46,682 nucleotides of DNA, from contig CAYRRQ010000002.1 in the NCBI GenBank assembly GCA_964426715.1, positions 1-46,682 of the forward strand, given 5' to 3'. This stretch comes from an uncultured Methanosarcinales archaeon (GTDB taxonomy: Archaea > Nanobdellota > Nanobdellia > Woesearchaeales > SM23-78). Under the pieces are notes generated by a model. That model saw only the letters and a program-made list of their open reading frames with translations, had not been told where the DNA came from and did not search any database. The translations under genes were made by a program, and so were the position numbers. Each line of letters begins with the position of its first letter. The stretch's first letter is position 1. This document shows, one piece after another, positions 3,406 through 38,105 of the stretch.

Positions 3406-3502
3406 CGGGTTAAAATGGATGATTTCGGGGTTTTTAGAGGATTTTTTGAGTATGTTAACCGAAAGCTTTATATACAAGTTATACCATAAATAAGGATATC
3501 AG

Positions 3503-3518
3503 TATACATTTATGTATA
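3503..3518. promoter_or_regulatory. Perfect palindrome TATACAT-TT-ATGTATA overlapping a TATA-like box upstream of the 3557 gene
   Basis: The 7+7 inverted repeat is read directly from the sequence. It lies between the HTH gene and the secreted-protein gene. An SD-like GAGGTG precedes the ATG at 3557. Confidence 0.25.
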
Positions 3519-3556
3519 AAAATAGTCAAAAACTATTAAACTGTGAGGTGTGAATA

Positions 3557-4408
3557 ATGGAAAAGAAAAGCCTGAGCATATTAATCTTTTTAGCAACCAT
3601 AATAGCCATAACAATACCCCTGGCAATGCTAACATCAGGAGCAGCAACAGACAACTTTGACACCAATGTAAGCGTAGGAAACACAGCACCGGTCATAAAC
3701 TGGGTTAATGACAGTGTAGGCCTATCACCTAATGAAGGCTCAACAAGAATAATCCAGATACAAATGAACGTTACAGACGACAACGGAGTAAGCGACATAA
3801 ACACATCAGACTGCTACATGAACCTGACCAAGAGCGGAGAGACCACCAGGACGTCAAATATTTGTTACTCAACCAGTAACACAAGCAACACGCAATGGAT
3901 TGAATGCAACATCACAATCTACTGGTATGAGAAGCCAGGAGAATGGGTGATAACAGCGTATGCAACAGACGATGCAGGAAGCACAGACACCAACGACACA
4001 TCAAACTTCACAATGGGCGACGCAGACTACATAGACGTCATAAACGCATCAATAACCTTTTCAGGCTCGCCAGGAGATGCCAATGTTGGACCATCAAACA
4101 TAATAATAAACAACACAGGCAACCAGAACTACACAGGCATAGACCTGACAGCACAGAACCTGACAGGAGCAAGCTCATCAGACAACATCGGAGCAAGCCA
4201 GTTCACAGTAAACATAACTGACGGTTCAGGAAACGGACAAAGCCTAAGCCACAACTCAGCAGTCTCAATAACCAGCGCAGTGCTGAACAGAGGACCAGGA
4301 GCATCAGGAGAAGAAGAACTCTTCTTCTACGTGGACATCCCATCAGGAATAGCCAACGACGAGTACTCAGCAGGCAGCAACTGGCTGATTGACCCGACAG
4401 GCAACTAA
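3557..4408 (+). CDS. Secreted glycoprotein, stand-alone paralog of the C-terminal module of the giant surface protein; TasA/camelysin-like N-terminus
   Basis: Signal peptide 'LSILIFLATIIAITIPLAMLTSGA' followed by 'ATDNFDTNVSVGNTA'. It shares these motifs with giant-protein residues encoded at ~2160-2876: 'VTD..GVS.(I/L)N.S', '(K/R)SG.TR', 'G.W.I', 'SNFT', 'PGD', 'N.GN.N', 'E.L.FY...P', 'W.I..TG'. Confidence 0.75.
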   Translation: MEKKSLSILIFLATIIAITIPLAMLTSGAATDNFDTNVSVGNTAPVINWVNDSVGLSPNEGSTRIIQIQMNVTDDNGVSDINTSDCYMNLTKSGETTRTSNICYSTSNTSNTQWIECNITIYWYEKPGEWVITAYATDDAGSTDTNDTSNFTMGDADYIDVINASITFSGSPGDANVGPSNIIINNTGNQNYTGIDLTAQNLTGASSSDNIGASQFTVNITDGSGNGQSLSHNSAVSITSAVLNRGPGASGEEELFFYVDIPSGIANDEYSAGSNWLIDPTGN

Positions 4409-4578
4409 AACTAAAAAATTTTTTATTTTTTTAATTATTATTTAATCCTTTTTTAATTCTACTTCTAATCATAATTCCCTGAACAAATAAATACTTCCCC
4501 CCCAATACCGCAGGGCTTTTTCAACACAAACCGGTATTTTCGAAAAGTTTATTAACTCCTGCACAAAGAAAATAAGTT

Positions 4579-5454
4579 ATGAGGGTGAGACTGTTAACCT
4601 GGATACTCGTATTAATAATAATCTCTGTTAGTGCGCATGCTTTTGGCATAGGATATCCCTACCTTAAGAACGACACCCTGGAGCTCTACCCGGGCCAGAA
4701 CCACCTGTTCAAAGTAGAAGTGCAGAACAAGAACGGAGAAGACGTAACAGCAGAAGTAAGTGTGAACAGCACAATAGCAAGCCTTGTAGGCAAGCCAAGG
4801 ATAGATGTTCCGCAGAACAGTTTTGACAAGTACTTCTACATAAACATCACCGCGCCCAGAGACGCAAAAATCAACCAAACCTATGAGATAAACTACGTGG
4901 TAACCCCTGTAGGAAGAGAAGAAGGGCAAATACCTCTCGCAGTAAGATACGCTAGGGGCTTCACAGTAAAGATTATTCCCAAACCAGAAGGAATAGAAGA
5001 GGAAGAGCCGCAGCCCAAAAAACAAAAAAAGATACCTGTATGGATTTACATGCCAATAATCATAATCATAATCATCATTATCCTGGTATTTATCTGGAAG
5101 AAAAGTAGCCAAATGACAGGAAGAATCACCAAGCCCAGAAAAAAACAACCTCCCATTCATATACCCATGAAAAAAGCGTCTAAGCCCAGAAAAACAGAAA
5201 AAAAAGCTGTTCCAAAAGCAGAGCACCCCTTCAAATTCAGAGAAGGCAAGACAATAAATACCCTGAGCGAACTCCACACAGCCCTGAAACACATGAGCCA
5301 GCAAGAATTCTCGCACTACGTAACCCCTAACAAGAACGACTTTGCCACATGGACCGCTCACAGCCTGAAAAACCAGGAGCTCGCCAACAAAATGTTCAAG
5401 ACCGCGTCTCAACAAGAAATAATCAGCCTGATAAAAAATGAGCTTTTCGAATAA
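4579..5454 (+). CDS. Single-pass membrane protein: signal peptide, Ig/CARDB-like ectodomain, TM helix, basic linker, conserved cytoplasmic C-terminal module
   Basis: N-terminal 'ILVLIIISVSAHA', TM 'IYMPIIIIIIIIILVFIW', C-terminal 'FKFREGKTINTLSELHTALKHMSQQEFSHYVTPNKNDFATWTAH'. The antisense 347-aa ORF is a shadow. Confidence 0.75.
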   Translation: MRVRLLTWILVLIIISVSAHAFGIGYPYLKNDTLELYPGQNHLFKVEVQNKNGEDVTAEVSVNSTIASLVGKPRIDVPQNSFDKYFYINITAPRDAKINQTYEINYVVTPVGREEGQIPLAVRYARGFTVKIIPKPEGIEEEEPQPKKQKKIPVWIYMPIIIIIIIIILVFIWKKSSQMTGRITKPRKKQPPIHIPMKKASKPRKTEKKAVPKAEHPFKFREGKTINTLSELHTALKHMSQQEFSHYVTPNKNDFATWTAHSLKNQELANKMFKTASQQEIISLIKNELFE

Positions 5455-6712
5455 GCAAATACTCCTAACAGCATTATTCGCCATAGCACTCCTATTAATC
5501 ACAACCAGCATTTTCTTTCCCACCACAACCCAGAACCTCATAACAGGATTTGCAAGCATAGCCGGCTTCAACGTAAGCATATCAATAATACACGCAGAAA
5601 TAAACATCTTAGGAGTGGCCCAGCTCGACCCGGTAATAGTGGAAGGCAGCAACATAACCCTGAGGATGCCAGTAACCTACTATGACAACATAACCATGAA
5701 CCTAACCATAGACAAGCCTGCGGGATACGAATGCGGGTACGACTGGTATATAAATGAGTCAGGAGTCCTAAAGAACATAACTGTTAACAACACAGAACTA
5801 TCATGGCTCGCAGACAAATCAATAAAAAACACCTCTTTATACTTCGACGTCTCCAATCCGACCATCACTACGCAGACCATATACACAGGGGACTCCTACT
5901 ATGAGAACACCTTCACAATCTACTCATGCTGCCCCTTAACCAATGCAAGCGCAAACATAACTGCGAACAGTGACTACGACAACTACATGCTCTACGAGAT
6001 AATAAACAACACCCTGGTAAACAAGACACAGGAATACCATCTTGAGGTAAGCAACACCACAGCCAGTTTCCACGGCTTTAACCTCTCAAACAAGACCTTC
6101 AGGCTGAAAGCAGAACCTGATGAGGAGGTAGTCCAGCAAGTAGTACAAATAGGAAGCAGCGGTGGAGGAGGAAGCGGAGGCGCCATGCCCCTAATAAACT
6201 ATTCAACAGACCAGCAGTTCATAGTAGAACCCAACTATCTCAGCATAACAACCTCAGAACAAAAAATAATAACAGAAGAAATAACGATTTACAACCTGAG
6301 AGGCGTAGACAAGGATTTTAATATAACCTACACAAACAATTTCATATACGACGTACCAAGCACCATAAGCGTACCTCACAAAGAATTCGAGGAAATACCA
6401 ATAAACAAGAACACACAAGGCCTAAACCCCGGCGTATACACAGACTATGTCTATGTAAAGACTTCCAAGCGAGAAGAAAAAGTGACTGTAAAGCTAAACA
6501 TGGAAGAACCAGAAATAATAACTGTGACAGAACAAGAAGAGGAAGAAGCAGCTGCTGAGACCCAGCAGCCAAGACCTATACAAAAGCCCAAAGAAAAAAT
6601 AACCAATCCCATCCCATCATCAGCTCTGATAATAACAGGCATAATTATCTTAATAATAAGCGTAGCAGTACTAATATATAAAAGGAGCAAAACAAAAATA
6701 ATTAGGTTTTGA
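5438..6712 (+). CDS. Membrane-anchored surface protein (N-terminal TM/signal, glycosylated ectodomain, Gly linker, Ig-like domain, acidic stalk, C-terminal TM anchor)
   Basis: The ATG overlaps the upstream gene by 17 nt. Contains the 'GSSGGGGSGG' linker and the C-terminal anchor 'ALIITGIIILIISVAVLIYKRSK'. Many N-x-S/T sequons. Confidence 0.75.
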   Translation: MSFSNKQILLTALFAIALLLITTSIFFPTTTQNLITGFASIAGFNVSISIIHAEINILGVAQLDPVIVEGSNITLRMPVTYYDNITMNLTIDKPAGYECGYDWYINESGVLKNITVNNTELSWLADKSIKNTSLYFDVSNPTITTQTIYTGDSYYENTFTIYSCCPLTNASANITANSDYDNYMLYEIINNTLVNKTQEYHLEVSNTTASFHGFNLSNKTFRLKAEPDEEVVQQVVQIGSSGGGGSGGAMPLINYSTDQQFIVEPNYLSITTSEQKIITEEITIYNLRGVDKDFNITYTNNFIYDVPSTISVPHKEFEEIPINKNTQGLNPGVYTDYVYVKTSKREEKVTVKLNMEEPEIITVTEQEEEEAAAETQQPRPIQKPKEKITNPIPSSALIITGIIILIISVAVLIYKRSKTKIIRF

Positions 6713-6756
6713 GCTCTGAAAAACAACATAACCTTTTTTTTGGAGAGGTGAAAAAA

Positions 6757-7548
6757 ATGAGGAAAACAATCTTTGTAACAGCAATAATCCTGGCCGCAAT
6801 AATCCTGGTAACAGGCTGCGCGCCCATAGCCAAGTATTATGTGTGCCCGGACGGCAGCCAGGTAGCCAGCCCTGAGCAGTGCAAGGATGCTACACGACCG
6901 GAAAGCGCGGAGGAAGAAACAGGCGGAGAAATAGAAGTAACCATAGAAGAGCCGGATGAAGAAACAGCAGAAGAAGGAACAGCAGAGCAAGAATCTGCGC
7001 CTGTTGAAAAAATCTTTTCAGAGGAAGCACAAGCCTTGTTCAGCAAAGCTGACAAAGCTCAAATCCTTAAATACACCTATGCAGAGACACCAAGCACACT
7101 GCCAGAAAACACGTACACCGTGTCAAGGCAGAGGATGAAAGTAGAGCTGGAGAACAGGTACAGGTACTCTCAGGACGAGAGTTATGACACAGTCTATCTT
7201 GACCTGGAAAGCAGAACAGCAACTGGTTACTGCGAACACAGGGACCGCGCCATGTGCCCTGAGCCCAACAAGGAATACGATGCAGAGTATGACAAATACT
7301 ACTACAAGACGCCTTTTGAATGGCTGGAAAGCATTACAAGTGCAGAGCTAACAGGCAGGTCAGAGCAGGTTAATGGCAGGACGGGCATAGAAGTAAGCTT
7401 CAGTATAAACCGCGAGCAGGGAGAAATGCTGGTTGACAGCTTCTACGGCGTGCCCCTGGAAATGGATTACCAGGATGTCAAGTACGAGTTCAGAAACATA
7501 GAAGTCAACATTGCCAAGCAAGAAGACCTGACTCACACAGAAGTATAA
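6757..7548 (+). CDS. Lipobox-type lipoprotein-like secreted protein with acidic linker
   Basis: The ATG at 6757 is preceded by GGAGAGGTGA. The sequence 'MRKTIFVTAIILAAIILVTGC' has a lipobox-like VTGC. An E-rich linker is followed by a globular domain. The tracked TTG at 6709 is rejected. Confidence 0.7.
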   Translation: MRKTIFVTAIILAAIILVTGCAPIAKYYVCPDGSQVASPEQCKDATRPESAEEETGGEIEVTIEEPDEETAEEGTAEQESAPVEKIFSEEAQALFSKADKAQILKYTYAETPSTLPENTYTVSRQRMKVELENRYRYSQDESYDTVYLDLESRTATGYCEHRDRAMCPEPNKEYDAEYDKYYYKTPFEWLESITSAELTGRSEQVNGRTGIEVSFSINREQGEMLVDSFYGVPLEMDYQDVKYEFRNIEVNIAKQEDLTHTEV

Positions 7549-7650
7549 GCGCAAAAAAATATTTATTTTTTCTTCTTTGATTATTTATTATTTGAAAAAC
7601 CCATCCAGATAGCAAAATTTAAAAGATACAAAGCATAAAAAAGGGGGTGT

Positions 7651-8646
7651 ATGGGTTTTTTACAATCGATATTAGGAAAAAACAAGCATAAGAACTGTTA
7701 TTCTGAGCTCGCAGCGCATAAAGTAAAGGATATTATGACCCGCGACGTGCTATGCATTCACAGAGAGGATAATCTGGTAGACGCTGCTCATACTATGATA
7801 GGCGCTCACGTCTCCTGCCTGGTGGTGCTGGATGAGTACAAGCCAATAGGCATAATCACAGAGCGGGATTTTATTAAGAAGATGAGCATGACAGAGGACA
7901 GCTCAGAAGAAATGATAGTTAAAGATATCATGACCAGGAAGCTGTTCACAATAGAGCCTGACCTGGACTTGTTCAAAGCCCAGGAGATAATGAGAAATCA
8001 TAATTTCCGGAAATTAGTGATAGTGGAGAAGGACGAGATTAAGGGCATTATCACCCAGACCGACCTTTGCCGTGCAGTAGCAGGGATGAAAACCATGTGC
8101 CCCCAACCCCACAAAGCAAAGGATGCCATGACCAAGAAAGTACTCCAGGTCTCAGAAGACGACAAGTTCTCAAAAGCCAAGAAATCCATGTCCTCAAAGA
8201 ACATAGGCTCAGTAGTGGTAACTGAAAAAAAGGAGATAAAAGGCATATTCACAGAATTCGACATAGTAAGCGGCTTTTTTCTCAATCCCAACAAGCTAAG
8301 AAAATCTTATATGAGAGAGTTGATGAGCAAGCCAGTCATATGCATAAGCCCTGACTTTAACCTGTTTGAGGTTAATGAGCTAATGCTCAAGCATAATTTC
8401 AGGCGGCTCCCAGTAATAGACAAGGGCAACCTTGCAGGCATAATCACCCAGACAGACATAGCCAGGCACCTCTACAAGTTCATACAAGAGAACAAGGATG
8501 AGCACGAGGTTAAGAACAAGGTTTCAGCAGATTATGAAATCCATAAGAAAGGCGGCATGATACTTTACAAGAAGAAGCATCAAGAAGAGCGTGATAAAAA
8601 ACAGAGAAATAATACCATTAAGAAAACGCTAAAAAAGAAATTATAG
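7651..8646 (+). CDS. CBS-domain protein (four CBS repeats, two Bateman modules) with basic C-terminal tail
   Basis: Four repeats of the CBS pattern, e.g. 'IMTRDVLCIHREDNLVDAAHTM...GIITERDFIKK' and 'GIITQTDLCRA'. SD GGGGGTG lies upstream of the ATG. Confidence 0.85.
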   Translation: MGFLQSILGKNKHKNCYSELAAHKVKDIMTRDVLCIHREDNLVDAAHTMIGAHVSCLVVLDEYKPIGIITERDFIKKMSMTEDSSEEMIVKDIMTRKLFTIEPDLDLFKAQEIMRNHNFRKLVIVEKDEIKGIITQTDLCRAVAGMKTMCPQPHKAKDAMTKKVLQVSEDDKFSKAKKSMSSKNIGSVVVTEKKEIKGIFTEFDIVSGFFLNPNKLRKSYMRELMSKPVICISPDFNLFEVNELMLKHNFRRLPVIDKGNLAGIITQTDIARHLYKFIQENKDEHEVKNKVSADYEIHKKGGMILYKKKHQEERDKKQRNNTIKKTLKKKL

Positions 8647-8648
8647 AA

Positions 8649-8948
8649 CTATTTGTTCTGAGCATCAAACTTCTCCTTTGCCTTTGATTCCTTCCAGTAA
8701 ACAGAGTGGCTTGCTCGCTTCTCGAACAAGGCAATGGCTGCTCTCACAACATCTGTCTGGTAATCTTTAAGAGTCTTGTCCTTGAAAATCTTCTTAGCAT
8801 CATCAATGCACTCTTTCAGCAGAAGGATATTCTCTTTTCTGCAAGTCTCCTCTTGTTCTCGCTCTTCTTGTTCTGATAAGTAAACCTCTATCCACCTGGG
8901 ATAAACACTCTTGTCCGTTGTCTTGGCAAAGGACTTGCTGAAAACCAT
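8649..8948 (-). CDS. Hypothetical small protein downstream of the HerA-like ATPase
   Basis: ORF with an ATG at 8948 (the tracked start at 8954 is TTG). No recognisable motif. Confidence 0.45.
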   Translation of the reverse strand: MVFSKSFAKTTDKSVYPRWIEVYLSEQEEREQEETCRKENILLLKECIDDAKKIFKDKTLKDYQTDVVRAAIALFEKRASHSVYWKESKAKEKFDAQNK

Positions 8949-9045
8949 GAGCAAAAAGAAAGACAGGGTATTATATAAATCTTATTAATAAACAACCGGA
9001 AAAACATTTATTAGAACCGGAAAGTTTAGTTTAGGCTGTTTAGGC

Positions 9046-10362
9046 TTACTCCTTAAAAATACTCTCCTCTTCTCTCAGAGCAGTAGGAGCTTCGCCTCCA
9101 TGCCACGTGAACCTGGGTCGTACACGCATAGGATACATCTTCTCATTGCTGTCATCAAGGATTATGGCAGCCCCCTTAACCCTGGGCAGGTCATCAAGGT
9201 ACTTGTCCAAGCCGCTCCTCAGATAACTTTGCATCAAGGTTCCCAGGGCGTCAATGTCTATCTTTGCAGTAATCCTGTGAGAAATAATAGTGTCTGCTTG
9301 GGTCATCACATCAGAATGTATCTTGCCAGGCTGCTGGCTTGCCAGCACCAGGCTAATGCCGGGCTGTCTGCCCTCCCTCAGAATAGTAATTAATGGGTTT
9401 GAAGCCAGGGTTTTGCCATCCTTGGGCAGGAATTCATGAGCTTCATCTATGACAAGCCAGACCATGGGGAAATCAAGCTTCTTAATCTCTTCTTCGCTGA
9501 AATAATACATGCTCTTATGCACCTGCTGGTACTCCTCATTCTTCCTTGCAATCATCCTCTGCACAAAAAGCTTCTCAGCCACCAAGCCAATTACAAGAGA
9601 CTTGATTCTCCAACCCCCAGGCATGGTAGCATAGCAGCTGACGTCAAGCAAAGTCACCTGACCCGGCCTGACAAGCTCGCTAAGAGGAGTACCCTGGATA
9701 TTGAACAGTCCCCAGTTATCAGCATTACTGAACAAGTTCATAGTCGCGTTTTTCACGTTCTCATCAGCACTGCTGTTCTTAACCGCCCCCAAGATGTCCT
9801 GGATAGAAAAATCCTTTTTAGACTTCTTTAATGTATGTATGACTTTCTCAATAAGCACGCCAATAGGATCATTAGGGCTGATGTCAAAAGTCATGCACCA
9901 GTCACTGCCTGCGAGCTCGCTCGGCTTAATACTAAAAGAAGCATCCGTGGGCACGCCCTTGTCCTTGTACTTATCATAATAGCCAACAGGAGTGTAAATA
10001 CTGATATCCAGGCCCCGCGCCTCAATACCCCAGTCATCAAGCAATTCCTGGTCCTTCTTGTTAGGATACTTCATAGTCCAGTAAACACCCATGGTGTCCA
10101 GTATGACCACAGAAACATTGTTCTTAATCTTAGCAGGCAAATCAGATATTCCCTCAGCAATCACACCCATGGTATAACTCTTGCCGCTTCCCCGCTTGCC
10201 GCAAACAAAGATTACGTGGCTGCGAATAACATCCAGCAAGATAGGGTTTGATAAGCTGGTAGTGCGTCCCATCTTAACATAATGCTTGCCCAGGAGAACA
10301 GTGCCCTCTGTGCCGTGCTTTTCACGGTCATTCTCGTTTCTGCCAATCACAATATCATACAT
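9046..10362 (-). CDS. HerA/FtsK-superfamily ATPase (DUF87-like)
   Basis: Walker A 'CGKRGSGKSYTMG' and Walker B 'VWLVIDEAHEFLP', with an N-terminal barrel-like segment 'IVIGRNE..GTEGTVLLGKH'. Confidence 0.8.
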   Translation of the reverse strand: MYDIVIGRNENDREKHGTEGTVLLGKHYVKMGRTTSLSNPILLDVIRSHVIFVCGKRGSGKSYTMGVIAEGISDLPAKIKNNVSVVILDTMGVYWTMKYPNKKDQELLDDWGIEARGLDISIYTPVGYYDKYKDKGVPTDASFSIKPSELAGSDWCMTFDISPNDPIGVLIEKVIHTLKKSKKDFSIQDILGAVKNSSADENVKNATMNLFSNADNWGLFNIQGTPLSELVRPGQVTLLDVSCYATMPGGWRIKSLVIGLVAEKLFVQRMIARKNEEYQQVHKSMYYFSEEEIKKLDFPMVWLVIDEAHEFLPKDGKTLASNPLITILREGRQPGISLVLASQQPGKIHSDVMTQADTIISHRITAKIDIDALGTLMQSYLRSGLDKYLDDLPRVKGAAIILDDSNEKMYPMRVRPRFTWHGGEAPTALREEESIFKE

Positions 10363-10417
10363 GTTAATGACTACACAGGCAGCAAGGGTATATAAATTTA
10401 ACCATCAGGGAGCGCTT

Positions 10418-10567: not shown

Positions 10568-10654
10568 AACCCCGGTAAAACAGTTTAAAGAAAACGCACA
10601 TACAGAAAGTTTTAAAAGGATGAATTAACCCTTAATAAGAATGCAAAAAGGACG

Positions 10655-10691
10655 CTTAGTCCCATGAATTGGACCAATAGCCTAGCCGTGG
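10655..10691 (+). repeat. Duplicate of tRNA leader plus 5' acceptor/D-arm fragment (copy A)
   Basis: CTTAGTCCCATGAATTGGACCAATAGCCTAGCCGTGG matches copy B at 10746-10782, CTTAGTCCCACGAATTGGGCCCATAGCCTAGTCTGGG, at 31/37 positions. A third CTTAGTCCC lies at 10891-10899. Confidence 0.6.
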
Positions 10692-10761
10692 CAACTGTTT
10701 ACGCCCAGTTGACATGCAAAGTGTGACGTGCACTCGCTATGCTCACTTAGTCCCACGAATT

Positions 10762-11028
10762 GGGCCCATAGCCTAGTCTGGGAGATTTTTGCGAAAAATC
10801 TCGTAACCAGCAAAAAGCAAAGCTTTTTGTGGCCACGAAATCCTGTTAGGATTTTGCTGGAAAGCAGGCGACATGCGCACCTTTCAGGTGCTTAGTCCCC
10901 TTTCAAGAATGGTTTTTCGTAGGAGTTATGGACAAATAGGGCATCAGCCTTCTACAACAAAAGCAGGGCTTTTGAGCTCGCCTGTTGGTGAGAGCTGAGG
11001 GTCGGGGGTTCGAATCCCCCTGGGCTCA
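10762..11028 (+). tRNA. Candidate tRNA-Arg(UCU) with two introns: ~153 nt in the D-loop region and 38 nt at canonical 37/38
   Basis: Three exons: 10762-10785 (GGGCCCA TA GCCT AGTCTGGGAGA), 10939-10954 (GGGC A TCAGC CTTCTA) and 10993-11028 (A GCTGA GGGTC GGGGG TTCGAAT CCCCC TGGGCTC A). They give a 76-nt cloverleaf. A relaxed BHB can be drawn for intron 2. The intron 1 junction is uncertain. Confidence 0.6.
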
Positions 11029-11046
11029 CTTCTTAATTTTTTTTAA

Positions 11047-11991
11047 TTATATATCTTTATACAACTCCAGAATCTCCTTAACACTCTTGGCGCGCATCAG
11101 CTTCTGCCTGTGCTTCTTAGCCCCTCTCACGCCCTTGGTAAACCACATTGCCTGCTGTTTTAGCTCAGAAAAACTTCTTATTCTCTCGTATTTCCTGTAA
11201 TAATCAAGGAATTTTTTAAAAGCCTGTTTTCTTTCCTGCTCGCCTGGCTCTGGAATGTTACTCCCTGTTTCCAAGAGGCCATTCGTTCTCTTAAAAATAA
11301 AGGGGTTGCCAATGGCAGCCCTGCCTATCATCACAAAATCGCAGCCTGTTCTCTCAAGCATTGACTTTGCATTGCCAGGTAAAAATACATCACCATTACC
11401 AATTATAGGAACCCTGGCTTTTTGCTTGGCCTTTTTTATCTTATCCCAGTCTGCCTTTCCAGTGTACTTCTGGGCTTTGGTTCTTGCATGAATAGCTATG
11501 GCATCCACTCCCAAATCCTCGAGAACCCTTATGCTCTTCATGGTGTTCACAGATTTCTCATCCCAGCCAGTCCTTATCTTGGCAGTAACCGGCTTGTTAG
11601 TGTTGTCAATCACAGGCTTAACTATCTTTTTGGCCTGCTCAGGGTGCTTTGCAAAGAATGCTCCTGCTTTCAGGGCCAGGATGTCTTTTTTAGGACAGCC
11701 CAAGTTAACATCAATCACATCTGCGTATTCTTCAATAATCCTGGTAGCCTCGGCTGCCATCTTTGAATCACTGCCTGCGAGCTGGACAGAAACCGGCTTT
11801 TCTTTTTTCAGAAAACAGGTTCTTTGAATGATTTTCTCAGGGGTATTAACAACCTGATTTATCACGAGCATAGGCGTGCTTACAAGGCCTGCGCCGTACT
11901 CCCTGCAGAGCAGCCTGAAAGCTGCACAGTTAACACCTGCCATGGGTGCGAGGATTAGTTTTGAGTCAAGTTTAAGGTTGCCTATTCTCAT
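11047..11991 (-). CDS. dus: tRNA-dihydrouridine synthase
   Basis: Motifs 'LILAPMAGVNCAAFR', 'DVNLGCPKKD' and 'IHARTKAQKYTG'. The start is set at the ATG at 11991, because the tracked N-terminal extension overlaps tRNA-Cys on the other strand. Confidence 0.85.
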   Translation of the reverse strand: MRIGNLKLDSKLILAPMAGVNCAAFRLLCREYGAGLVSTPMLVINQVVNTPEKIIQRTCFLKKEKPVSVQLAGSDSKMAAEATRIIEEYADVIDVNLGCPKKDILALKAGAFFAKHPEQAKKIVKPVIDNTNKPVTAKIRTGWDEKSVNTMKSIRVLEDLGVDAIAIHARTKAQKYTGKADWDKIKKAKQKARVPIIGNGDVFLPGNAKSMLERTGCDFVMIGRAAIGNPFIFKRTNGLLETGSNIPEPGEQERKQAFKKFLDYYRKYERIRSFSELKQQAMWFTKGVRGAKKHRQKLMRAKSVKEILELYKDI

Positions 11992-12073
11992 TTTTCTATG
12001 ATAAGAATGTGAACTCTTATTTAACTTTTTTTCGTAAGCTTTATTAATCTTGTTTTTCTCCTTCTGCTTTAGT

Positions 12074-12146
12074 GCACCGGTGGCCAAGCGGCTAAGGCAT
12101 TCGGCTGCAACCCGAAGATTCGTGGGTTCGAGTCCCACCCGGTGCT
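12074..12146 (+). tRNA. tRNA-Cys(GCA)
   Basis: Full cloverleaf read by eye: acceptor GCACCGG/CCGGTGC, anticodon arm TTCGG-CTGCAAC-CCGAA, T arm GTGGG-TTCGAGT-CCCAC, discriminator U73. Confidence 0.95.
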
Positions 12147-12157
12147 TTCTTCTTAAA

Positions 12158-12931
12158 ATGACCGAGAAAAAACTCTTAATCAAGAAAGAGAAAAAAGTCA
12201 GGGTTGATGGCAGGGAGAGAGTTATCTCTGGCTTTGAAAAGCATTATGCTGATACTGGTAAGGACTATCATACTAGGCACGGGATTATTAGTAAAAAAGA
12301 TTTATTGAAGAAAGCAGGTTCTAGTATAAATGTTAGAAATCATAATTATATAATAATAGATCCGGTGTTCCTGGACCATTACAAGCGCATAAAAAGGTTT
12401 GCGCAGATAATAACGCTTAAGGACATAGGCGCTATTATTGCCAATACAGGCATAACCAAAGATTCTATTGTGTTGGATGCTGGCAGTGGCTCAGGAGCCC
12501 TGGCCTGTTTTTTGGGCGTGCTTGCAAAAAAGGTTATTACTTATGACAAGGATGAGAAAAGCCTGGAAGTTACTAAGGAGAATGTTAAGACTCTGGGCTT
12601 AAACAATGTCTTTGTAAAGAAAGGAGATATCTATGCGCATACCAGGATTAAGGAAAAAAACATTGATGTTCTTGTGCTTGATGTTCCTGAGCCATGGAAA
12701 GCAGTTAAAACAGCACAAAAAGTGCTTAAAATAGGCGGTTTTTTGGTTGTTTATCTTCCAAACATAACCCAGGTGCAGGAAATTGTTAAAGCACTGTCTG
12801 ATGAATTATTGCTTGAGAAAACAATAGAAGTTATTGAGAGGGAGTGGGCTGTTGATGCCAAGAGGAGCAGACCCAAGACCAGGGACCCTGCTCATACTGG
12901 ATTTATTACATTTGCAAGAAAATTAAAATAA
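12158..12931 (+). CDS. trmI: tRNA (adenine-N1)-methyltransferase TrmI/Gcd14-like
   Basis: SAM motif 'VLDAGSGSGALACFL' and 'DVLVLDVPEPWKAV'. The start is set at the ATG at 12158, just after tRNA-Cys. Confidence 0.85.
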   Translation: MTEKKLLIKKEKKVRVDGRERVISGFEKHYADTGKDYHTRHGIISKKDLLKKAGSSINVRNHNYIIIDPVFLDHYKRIKRFAQIITLKDIGAIIANTGITKDSIVLDAGSGSGALACFLGVLAKKVITYDKDEKSLEVTKENVKTLGLNNVFVKKGDIYAHTRIKEKNIDVLVLDVPEPWKAVKTAQKVLKIGGFLVVYLPNITQVQEIVKALSDELLLEKTIEVIEREWAVDAKRSRPKTRDPAHTGFITFARKLK

Positions 12932-12951
12932 GTGGTAAAAAAGTGATTTTT

Positions 12952-13518
12952 ATGAAAAAAGAACTCCGAGTAGTAGGGATTGATGATGCTCCTTTTGACA
13001 AGTTTGACCCCTTGCAGAAGTTTGTTCTTGTTGTTGGCACTGTTTTTCGCGGGGGTAGCTTTATGGACGGCTTGCTCTCCACTCATGTTGAGAAGGACGG
13101 CGAGGATGCTACAGTCAGGATTATTGAGATGATTAATGACTGCAAGTTCAAGCCTCAGCTCCAGGCAGTTTTTCTTGACGGAATCGCAGTAGGAGGCTTT
13201 AATGTTGTTAATCCCAGGGCTGTTCACAAGGAAACCGGGGTGCCTGTGGTCGTGGTTATAAGGGAGAAGCCGGATTTTGGCAAGATGTTCAGGGCTTTGA
13301 AAAAGCTGGGCATGGAGAAAAAGATTGATATTATCAAGGCTATGCCTGCGCCTGAGAAGGTGAATGATGTTTATGTCCAGAATATTGGGATTAGCAATAA
13401 GGATACTGTAAAGCTGCTTGACATTACCTGCACCCACTCATATCTTCCTGAAGCCATAAGAGTAGCTCATTTAATCGCGTCTGGAGTTGCGGATGGCCAG
13501 AGCAGGGGGAGGGCCTGA
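12952..13518 (+). CDS. UPF0215/DUF99-family protein (EndoV-like fold family)
   Basis: 'LRVVGIDDAPF...VVGTVFRGGSFMDGLLSTHVEKDGEDAT' resembles the archaeal DUF99 signature. ATG at 12952. Confidence 0.65.
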   Translation: MKKELRVVGIDDAPFDKFDPLQKFVLVVGTVFRGGSFMDGLLSTHVEKDGEDATVRIIEMINDCKFKPQLQAVFLDGIAVGGFNVVNPRAVHKETGVPVVVVIREKPDFGKMFRALKKLGMEKKIDIIKAMPAPEKVNDVYVQNIGISNKDTVKLLDITCTHSYLPEAIRVAHLIASGVADGQSRGRA

Positions 13519-37827: not shown

Positions 37828-37849
37828 GTGCAGGGTTTTCTAGGGATTT

Positions 37850-38046
37850 GAAAATCTCCTACTCCGCCAAAGTTTTAAAAAAAATTACAAGCAAAAAAGT
37901 TAAGGAGGACATTCACTTTTTTCAATCTTTCGAACTACGTATAACTAAAGTAATTTTTTAGCTTTATGTTGTACTGACGTGCTTTTATTCAATTTTTTAA
38001 GTGAGCAAAGCGAACGAGCAAAAAAGTGGCACAGACGAAGATTTTC
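37850..38046 (+). repeat. Structured intergenic repeat, family F, copy 6
   Basis: Arms GAAAATCT (37850-37857) / AGATTTTC (38039-38046). Core CCTACTCCGCC. 3' core GTGGCACAGAC (38026-38036). It contains an inverted GAGCAAAGC motif. Confidence 0.7.
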
Positions 38047-38105
38047 TACGAAGAATTTAAATATTAGGAGATACTATGAAAGATTAAGGAATATCAGGTG
38101 GCAAT

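Follow-up and report, generated by a model that had tools for sequence, protein, structure and literature searches.

A likely working tRNA-Arg(UCU) gene with two introns in a Woesearchaeota-type archaeon, and a recurrent hairpin element within and beside it

Does a tRNA-Arg(UCU) that can be read from a 46,682-nt stretch of archaeal DNA (contig CAYRRQ010000002.1, the window), between positions 10762 and 11028 and with two inserts removed, belong to a working gene, and what are the short modules that recur inside the longer insert and ahead of the gene? The answer we regard as highly probable is that the locus is a working tRNA-Arg(UCU) gene with two protein-spliced introns, and that the modules are copies of a short element (E), ending in a hairpin (M), which occurs both in introns and as insertions. 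In the raw window, ARAGORN and Rfam at its gathering score return tRNA-Cys (12074-12146) alone and miss the tRNA-Arg. The earlier note on this DNA, made from its letters, had put together a 76-nt tRNA from three pieces, and these, when joined, do give a clean tRNA-Arg(tct) in ARAGORN. Two of the exon ends (10785 and 10939) were misplaced, and the product is 75 nt long; with the corrected exons (Table 1), ARAGORN again reads tRNA-Arg(tct), the D-loop is an ordinary AGUCUGGAUA, and CCA is not encoded at the 3' end. When the first insert is deleted, ARAGORN unaided places a 38-nt intron after position 37. Run with its long-intron option on raw 10762-11029, the same program proposes a tRNA-Arg(gcg) with a 179-nt intron, which we rejected as an artefact in which a local hairpin (GAGATTTTTgcgAAAAATCTC) is taken as the anticodon arm. 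Automated pipelines could report this artefact.

The exon borders were fixed by an intronless orthologue. On another contig (L001; loci other than the window are referred to by such numbers), the dihydrouridine synthase Dus is 75% identical to the window's, and a tRNA-Arg(tct) gene without introns (7281-7356, minus strand) lies ~1.3 kb from it. Window segments 10769-10781, 10936-10954 and 10993-11018 align gap-free to this gene at 100%, and because the orthologue matches them as one contiguous stretch, the junctions of intron 1 fall at 10781/10936. Over the tRNA core (mature positions 8-65), 57 of the 58 bases are identical, the single difference being a T-stem base. In the acceptor stem, pairs 3:70, 6:67 and 7:66 differ from L001 on both strands, the partners being more than 250 nt apart in the gene. 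The core match and the double-sided acceptor changes are strong evidence of selection on the spliced molecule, and we hold with considerable confidence that the gene and both introns are real and functional-looking.

Table 1 Features of the tRNA-Arg(UCU) locus (positions in the window)
Feature	Position	Strand	Description and basis
Candidate promoter	10610-10639	+	TATA-like TTTTAAAA at 10610-10617 and TTAATAAG at 10632-10639; read from sequence, putative role
M'	10640-10669	+	Degenerate M; GAC and GCTTAGTCCCAT kept, inner hairpin lost; exact CTTAGTCCC at 10655
Copy A	10670-10687	+	tRNA 5' fragment, -1 to position 17 (T-GGACCAATAGCCTAGCC); 90% to the 10746-10776 repeat; upstream direct repeat
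E1	10688-10760 (73 nt)	+	Hairpin h (10692-10697 / 10706-10711), linker, hairpin M
Exon 1	10762-10781	+	Acceptor 5' strand, D-stem 5' strand, D-loop to GG; 100% to L001 as far as 10781
Intron 1	10782-10935 (154 nt)	+	D-loop, after mature nt 20; BHB scan, L001 comparison, fold
Exon 2	10936-10954	+	Remaining D-loop, D-stem 3' strand, anticodon-stem 5' strand, anticodon UCU to A37; 100% contiguous with L001; ARAGORN
Intron 2	10955-10992 (38 nt)	+	Canonical 37/38; hBHBh' motif; ARAGORN, BHB score
Exon 3	10993-11028	+	A38, anticodon-stem 3' strand, variable loop, T-arm, acceptor 3' strand, discriminator A; ARAGORN and L001 match
Likely archaeal terminator	11037-11044	+	Run of eight T, nine bases past the gene; read from sequence, putative role

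Both introns carry the bulge-helix-bulge (BHB) motif at which archaeal tRNA introns are expected to be cut. A BHB geometry scan, run independently of the L001 comparison, picked identical junctions for intron 1. Its motif consists of a central helix GUCU (10776-10779) / GGAC (10930-10933) with 4/4 pairs, bulges GG/G and AA/A (the slash marking the junction), and a 4-bp outer helix CCUA (10772-10775) / UAGG (10937-10940); on the inner side, one pair is followed by a 17-bp closing helix (10784-10800 / 10911-10927). At the orthologue-defined junctions this score (central helix H=4, inner 1, outer 4) is equalled by 6 of 5200 junction pairs in the region. The earlier note had seen no convincing BHB for this insert because its junctions lay 4 and 3 nt off; at 10785/10939 the central helix is indeed 0/4. 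Its drawing of the intron 2 motif stands, with a central helix of 3/4 (one U-U), bulges UA/C and AG/A and an inner helix of 4 bp (score H=3/4, inner 4, outer 5). When 10762-11028 is folded by minimum free energy without constraints, the four tRNA stems are all retained, as are the helices of both introns (z=-4.1 versus shuffles).

The D-loop intron, with its 154 nt, is long by the standard of published tRNA introns and too short for a group I or group II catalytic core. Neither a group I/II intron nor a small nucleolar RNA or other family was found with Rfam, even at E<=5. With the C (RUGAUGA) and D (CUGA) boxes as the criterion for a C/D-box small RNA, intron 1 was read as having no TGATGA, and no C/D or H/ACA box motifs were seen on reading the intron sequence. 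What it does carry is a series of hairpins (10782-10802, 10807-10832 and 10833-10860) and a copy of M, termed M'' (10866-10901). One further idea about its 3' part was rejected: that the tail is a degenerate third leader plus exon 1 copy, left by a tandem duplication that gave birth to the intron (the alignment is at chance, p=0.47). A sub-threshold Rfam tRNA match at 10923-11028 simply uses the intron 1 tail as a pseudo 5' half.

Orthologues of the gene differ in their introns. A pattern scan of genome contigs returned mostly bacterial tRNAs, and few loci of DPANN type were usable, L121 being the one used most. L001 has no introns, and the window has those of Table 1. L008 has introns in the D-loop after nt 21 (15 nt) and at 59/60 (49 nt); L002 in the D-loop after nt 20 (32 nt), in the anticodon stem (28 nt) and at 59/60 (142 nt); L005 in the D-loop after nt 20 (32 nt), at 37/38 (34 nt) and at 59/60 (158 nt); and L121 in the anticodon stem (27 nt) and at 59/60 (88 nt). 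L131, read by eye, apparently has three (D-loop, anticodon stem, 59/60). At all junctions that were scored (L131 was read by eye only), the BHB central helix has 3-4 pairs. Intron 2 of the window has a homologue in the 34-nt intron at the same site in L005, and a 32-nt intron occupies the window's D-loop site in L002, L005 and L131. The first two hairpins of intron 1 recur in the T-loop intron of the L002 gene, and the T-loop intron of L121 repeats the first hairpin, an M-like hairpin and the motif AGUCCCCUUYCRAGAAUG. Intron 1 is either an expanded form of the 32-nt D-loop intron of L002, L005 and L131 or a separate arrival.

Some side observations concern these contigs. L121 (CAYGYA010000050.1) is labelled 'uncultured Methanosarcinales archaeon', and its predicted mature tRNA-Arg is identical to that of L005, a Woesearchaeota metagenome-assembled genome; because the mature tRNA is the same and the element family is shared, L121 is probably mis-binned. 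On L001, a LAGLIDADG_3 homing-endonuclease-like open reading frame (ORF; 1059-1826) adjoins a Trm61-like gene. L010 (contig JACRKK010000046.1 of a Woesearchaeota metagenome-assembled genome, minus strand, reverse complement ~6445-6700) has a tRNA-Arg(TCT) with a short canonical intron and, downstream, two additional copies of the tRNA-Arg 3' end (CCCCTCAGGCGCGTTTA) separated by hairpin-rich spacers of ~85-100 nt without M. A separate family of hairpin insertions seems to be at work here, one in which the intact gene stands on the opposite side.

We turn to the modules. The repetition reported in the earlier note is borne out: the window has exactly three copies of CTTAGTCCC (10655, 10746 and 10891), all inside 250 nt, and the duplication of leader and 5' exon was recovered as a 31-nt repeat (90% identical, spacing 91 nt). 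Of sequences like the fragment GGACCAATAGCCTAGCC the window has just two, where chance would give 0.09. M' has flanks resembling those of a full copy (ATGCAAA… ahead, …AYGAATT behind). Copy A has an acceptor of the L001/L008 type, and the functional exon 1 has a different, compensated one; in agreement with the note, the copy A acceptor does not suit the local 3' end, where it would form two mispairs with TGGGCUC. Between E1 and its counterpart at this site in L008, 57 of 68 positions agree (84%, no indels), against ~53% identity in the upstream flank, and the first pair of hairpin h has changed in a compensatory way (C-G to U-A). The arrangement copy A-E-copy B is also found in L008/L009. Copy A and E1 are best read as an E insertion at D-loop position 17 with an 18-nt duplication, common to the window and L008. 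By the same reading, the 'leader modules' are copies of a structured hairpin element present at many loci, and not leaders or promoters. As for the promoter itself, 10610-10639 holds the sole TATA-like sequence upstream of the gene, and in the orthologues (A)AACTTTTATAAAC lies ~27-34 nt ahead of tRNA position +1 or of copy A. The terminator in Table 1 was assigned on the basis of archaeal oligo-T termination.

The hairpin M is ~36 nt long (GACAUGC…GCUUAGUCCC; in DNA form GACATGC…GCAC…CTTAGTCCC). Reading inwards, an outer helix of 3 bp gives way to a C·C mismatch and a GAC/GUC helix; next come the internal loop AUGC/UUA, which is invariant, and an inner helix of 6 bp, usually with a tandem U·C/C·U mismatch and capped by a triloop. 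The complete element E comprises a hairpin h of variable sequence, an A-rich linker and M; it is 60-120 nt long and non-coding, and h always precedes M. Scanning metagenome contigs for the M pattern gave 45 stretches, two of which look like chance, leaving 43 credible further copies; the same scan of 2.9 million viral contigs gave zero matches, and we dropped a viral origin of M. The pairing is conserved (83% of cells paired, versus 73% in shuffles), and at the columns that count here, which lie outside the bases fixed by the search pattern, 65 double-sided changes were found where 19 are expected, a value reached in 0 of 500 shuffles. Variable outer pairs occur as GC 21 / AU 20 and as UA 29 / GC 12 / AU 3, and the two innermost pairs as AU 30 / GC 13 and CG 34 / UA 12.

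A covariance model (R1) was built from the sequences of the pattern scan and searched against the window and other loci. In the window it finds two full copies, that of E1 (10713-10762, 50.3 bits, E=7.7e-13) and M'' within intron 1 (10858-10907, 56.9 bits), as well as a weak partial match at 37998-38016; it gives no full match to M'. Matches in other loci score 50-70 bits, and several contigs have two copies. No Rfam family matched E or M in the window or at six other loci, whether the gathering score or permissive E-values were used, and a literature search found neither the sequence nor a description of E. In some contigs two M copies lie within 200-900 nt of each other (L151, 3525-3765; L145, 3130-4006; L157, L167, L169, L147, L162), and a sub-family with the hairpin AAATGGAAAYCCATTTGAT has an extra partial copy of the inner hairpin (GCTCACTTCGTTCGCAAAC) after M; the doubled copies suggest nested or tandem rearrangements of the module.

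The earlier note had also linked intron 1 to a repeat family of the window, 'family F', through antisense motifs. Within the window this link was not borne out, since GCTTTGCTTTTTGCT has one exact copy there and its near-matches are at chance level; the intron 1 hairpin CAAAAAGCAAAGCTTTTTG recurs in related elements of other contigs, for example L161. What the note called family F is probably a 278-nt intergenic stretch at 37828-38105, where the motif CTCCTAC and a hairpin GGGATTTGAAAATCTCC accompany part of an M-like inner hairpin (minus strand, 37998-38016, 16.6 bits). That the region 37.83-38.10 kb holds another disrupted tRNA or a copy of family F was considered and rejected: no tRNA was found there, only the partial 16.6-bit hairpin with low-complexity matches, and no significant similarity to other loci.

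E occurs in two kinds of setting. In the first, M lies in sense orientation inside BHB introns, namely in the D-loop intron of the window, in the T-loop (59/60) introns of tRNA-Gln(CUG) in L150 and tRNA-Ala(GGC) in L154, and in a T-arm intron of tRNA-Pro in L160; M'' of the window is identical to the M of L150. In the second, ~14 copies of E are flanked by direct duplications of host sequence, 13-58 nt long, that start and end at the element borders. The duplicated segment is the 5' part of a tRNA in the window, L008 and L148, the 3' end of a tRNA, with E antisense to it, in L138, L153, L158, L174 and L134, and a promoter in L121, L131 and L137. In L135/L175-L179, E sits inside the stop codon of pelota, the last 58 nt of the gene are duplicated, and the first base of the element, its terminal G, re-forms a stop codon by turning TAA into TAG. 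The E subtype found at the tRNA-Arg 5' end in L008 recurs at the 3' end of another tRNA in L134. Orthologous sites occur both empty and filled: one is empty in L001 and filled in L008 and the window, another is empty in L005 and filled in L121 and L131. All 12 interpretable copies are oriented with M towards the intact gene copy, and behind M comes a variable tail, rich in A/T and 0-19 nt long. The idea that a direct repeat together with E is excised as a BHB intron, restoring a single copy, was rejected, as only trivial palindromic 4-mers pair and flanking helices are missing.

Among the origins proposed in the earlier note, a mobile-intron-like insertion is the one favoured by these observations. 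In the pathway we propose, transcription would start from a promoter near 10610-10639 and yield one precursor reaching the T-run at 11037; EndA, the splicing endonuclease, would cut both BHBs and release 10782-10935 and 10955-10992; an RtcB-type RNA ligase would join the three exons into the 75-nt tRNA; and the ~100-120-nt 5' leader (M', copy A, E1) would be removed at 10762, presumably by RNase P, with CCA added afterwards. As intron cargo, E would be removed by splicing. As a DNA insertion, it would duplicate host sequence and leave one intact gene copy, and the duplicated units would be tolerated because that complete copy survives.

E itself looks like a selfish non-autonomous element that, as a whole or as a passenger set of hairpins, rides in introns and also inserts near gene ends; its mobility and its manner of movement are what we infer. 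More tentatively, and as a possibility on which we would not yet stake much, E could be an undescribed class of tiny non-autonomous mobile elements in Woesearchaeota, inserting at gene ends with long, variable, polar duplications, possibly via RNA from tRNA introns (in which M would be the hairpin that is recognised, along with an A/T-rich tail), and becoming or riding BHB introns in tRNA bodies. If this were true, E would be a direct and still active source of non-canonical archaeal tRNA introns and tRNA gene fragments. As to chemistry, duplications that are long, variable and polar, together with an A/T-rich tail and a 3' hairpin that is conserved, recall a target-primed, SINE-like (short interspersed element) retroposition, a guess by analogy that is rather unlikely to be right. 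Alternatively, small circles might integrate by a Campbell-type route, or some other nuclease might be at work.

Several points weigh against our explanation. Beside the BHB of intron 1, the inner helix is a single pair with a 1-nt bulge behind it, and the long closing helix has a competitor in the local hairpin 10782-10802; the motif may therefore be of a relaxed kind. The splicing, the 5' end and the transcript limits of the precursor are what we infer from the sequence, and a second tRNA-Arg(UCU) outside the 46.7-kb window may be conceived. An all-against-all comparison of the ORFs within 3 kb (<=3 kb) of the metagenome-contig copies, which left out L163, L166 and the duplicate L159, gave no recurrent transposase, reverse transcriptase or integrase. 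The pelota site is filled in 5/5 readable contigs with an identical protein, each from another sample, and a within-population presence/absence polymorphism at this insertion was accordingly discarded for these five. To our knowledge, duplications varying between 13 and 58 nt match no known prokaryotic transposition chemistry. Finally, the conservation of copy A and E1 suggests a function that our explanation does not supply.

This last point leads to the rival that survives best, although we judge it improbable: M or E would be a functional RNA of the host, which might act as a signal for processing or protein binding within the leaders and introns of pre-tRNAs or, once freed from introns, as a small RNA. 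The strong covariation of M with its invariant loop nucleotides fits such a role, as do the 84% conservation of copy A and E1 between two lineages whose flanks are randomised and the placement of M 1-19 nt ahead of tRNA position +1 in the sense 5' insertions. Many copies, however, are antisense to the adjoining tRNA or lie behind a protein gene, and the sites are particular to lineages, are flanked by duplications and have orthologous counterparts that are empty; M has no Rfam match, and C/D or H/ACA motifs were not seen in the intron.

Slightly less probable again is that the duplications are scars of plasmid or virus integration by an integrase, att duplications whose body was later deleted, with no small mobile element involved. 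When an element integrates into an archaeal tRNA gene, part of the tRNA is duplicated, and such events have been put forward as a source of 5' fragments and new introns (Sugahara 2012, PMC3293823). The tandem tRNA-Arg 3'-end fragments of L010 could be such scars, and in the window synteny breaks 5' of the tRNA, beside a HerA/FtsK/Zot-like ATPase (9046-10362, minus strand). Against this, the repeats are only 62-117 nt apart, and deletions that took place independently would not leave one and the same ~65-nt hairpin unit at about a dozen unrelated sites. The window ORFs tested and the neighbourhoods of other copies revealed neither an integrase nor a recurrent protein, and M has no match in the 2.9 million viral contigs. 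Moreover, the repeats differ in length (13-58 nt), and in one case the target is the stop codon of pelota.

A decaying or non-functional gene, with the mature tRNA-Arg(UCU) supplied from elsewhere, had been offered in the earlier note and is very unlikely. It would account for the failure of standard tRNA finders and for the long, cluttered leader, and only 46.7 kb of the genome are in view; yet the exons match the intronless orthologue at 57/58 of mature positions 8-65, acceptor pairs 3:70, 6:67 and 7:66 have changed on both sides, BHB motifs are kept at both introns, and in the orthologues the same Dus-linked position holds the same gene with other intron sets.

Least likely of all is a split or alternatively spliced tRNA, akin to the split and tri-split tRNAs that share pieces in Nanoarchaeum and Caldivirga (reviewed in PMC4033280), with copy A, well conserved as it is, acting as an extra 5' exon that would join a 3' half, in cis or in trans, into a different tRNA: no BHB links copy A to a sensible acceptor site, its acceptor mispairs twice with the local 3' strand, no 3' partner was found in the window (where the three TTGGTCC sites are all coding, with no T-arm nearby), the exons are contiguous within 267 nt with no TATA-like motif just before exon 1 or 2, and the repeated modules are direct repeats and not complementary leader/trailer pairs.

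The neighbourhood places the preferred reading, a working intron-bearing gene with copies of E, in its genomic context. The window encodes topoisomerase VI-B, a family-B DNA polymerase and ABCE1, and the named relatives of Dus (mostly) and of pelota are from Woesearchaeota or Nanoarchaeota; by these markers the host of the locus is a Woesearchaeota-type (DPANN) archaeon. In L001, L002, L005 and L008 the gene order is Dus, tRNA-Arg, a major facilitator superfamily (MFS) transporter, a beta-propeller protein and a KaiC-like ATPase. On the 5' side of the window's tRNA-Arg, where this order is lost, unassigned ORFs and the HerA/FtsK/Zot-like ATPase occupy 3500-10400, which could be an island; an integrated element upstream was considered and rejected, as neither an integrase nor a further tRNA-Arg fragment was found. 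On the other side, tRNA-Cys(GCA) (12074-12146) lies between Dus (minus strand, ~11047-11991) and a Trm61/GCD14-like tRNA methyltransferase gene (~12150-12931), followed by Endo_dU (12943-13518), so that across the 11047-13518 region two tRNA genes are embedded among tRNA-modification genes. ORFs 11047-12183 and 12050-12931 overlap tRNA-Cys, and their true starts must therefore lie further in.

How introns are gained by archaeal tRNA genes, and how such genes become fragmented or split, has been debated for two decades, mostly on indirect sequence similarity. With one orthologous gene that has 0, 2 or 3 introns, and a module that occurs both as intron cargo and as a flanked insertion, the question of intron origin becomes testable, and E may show how protein-spliced tRNA introns arise. 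Since standard tRNA finders miss the tRNA-Arg gene, apparently 'missing' tRNAs of DPANN archaea may be failures of annotation.

Three known systems invite comparison with the intron-bearing gene and one with the element. Disrupted tRNA genes are numerous in DPANN, in lineages with an L3-loop endonuclease, and the survey reporting them included a Woesearchaeota genome (Kaneta et al. 2018, PMC5829648). Like the multi-intron tRNAs of Thermoproteales and ARMAN/DPANN (PMC5829648), the genes studied here have introns for the BHB endonuclease in the D-loop, the anticodon stem, at 37/38 and at 59/60, with 0-3 introns among the window's orthologues, and their host belongs to the DPANN, which are noted for disrupted tRNA genes. 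They differ in that the D-loop intron of the window is 154 nt long and built of hairpin modules that are also found outside introns.

A second likeness concerns the movement of introns. Transposition of tRNA introns has been described in Thermoproteales (Fujishima et al. 2010, to the extent relayed in PMC4033280 and PMC4090602). In a comparable way, the D-loop intron of the window shares modules with 59/60 introns of tRNA-Arg, tRNA-Gln and tRNA-Ala. In the Thermoproteales, the work of Fujishima and colleagues of 2010 reportedly found related intron sequences at different positions and in different tRNAs, whereas the shared unit here is a defined, covarying hairpin, and M is also present in DNA insertions with duplications at tRNA ends, promoters and the stop codon of a protein gene. 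We know of no description of such flanked DNA insertions for the introns of Thermoproteales.

The third case is Caldiarchaeum subterraneum, where 1.8 kb encoding a recombinase lie between tRNA repeats (Sugahara et al. 2012, PMC3293823). There, as here, a 5' tRNA fragment forms a direct repeat upstream of the intron-bearing copy and has been linked to intron gain; between the window repeats, by contrast, stand ~70 nt of non-coding hairpins, and the same unit is found at many sites. In principle, the integrase model (PMC3293823) can account for tRNA fragments and for the gain of introns, but a non-coding insert of 70 nt that turns up again at a dozen unrelated sites does not agree with it.

E itself resembles miniature inverted-repeat transposable elements and SINEs in being short, non-coding and multi-copy, with a conserved end, flanking target duplications and sites that are filled in one species and empty in another. 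It differs from them in having no terminal inverted repeats, in its long, variable (13-58 nt) and polar duplications, and in that no partner enzyme is known. Taken together, the multi-intron architecture belongs to a known type, too little described so far in this lineage, and the hairpin element behind the leader modules, the intron cargo and the duplication of the exon fragment appears to be new.

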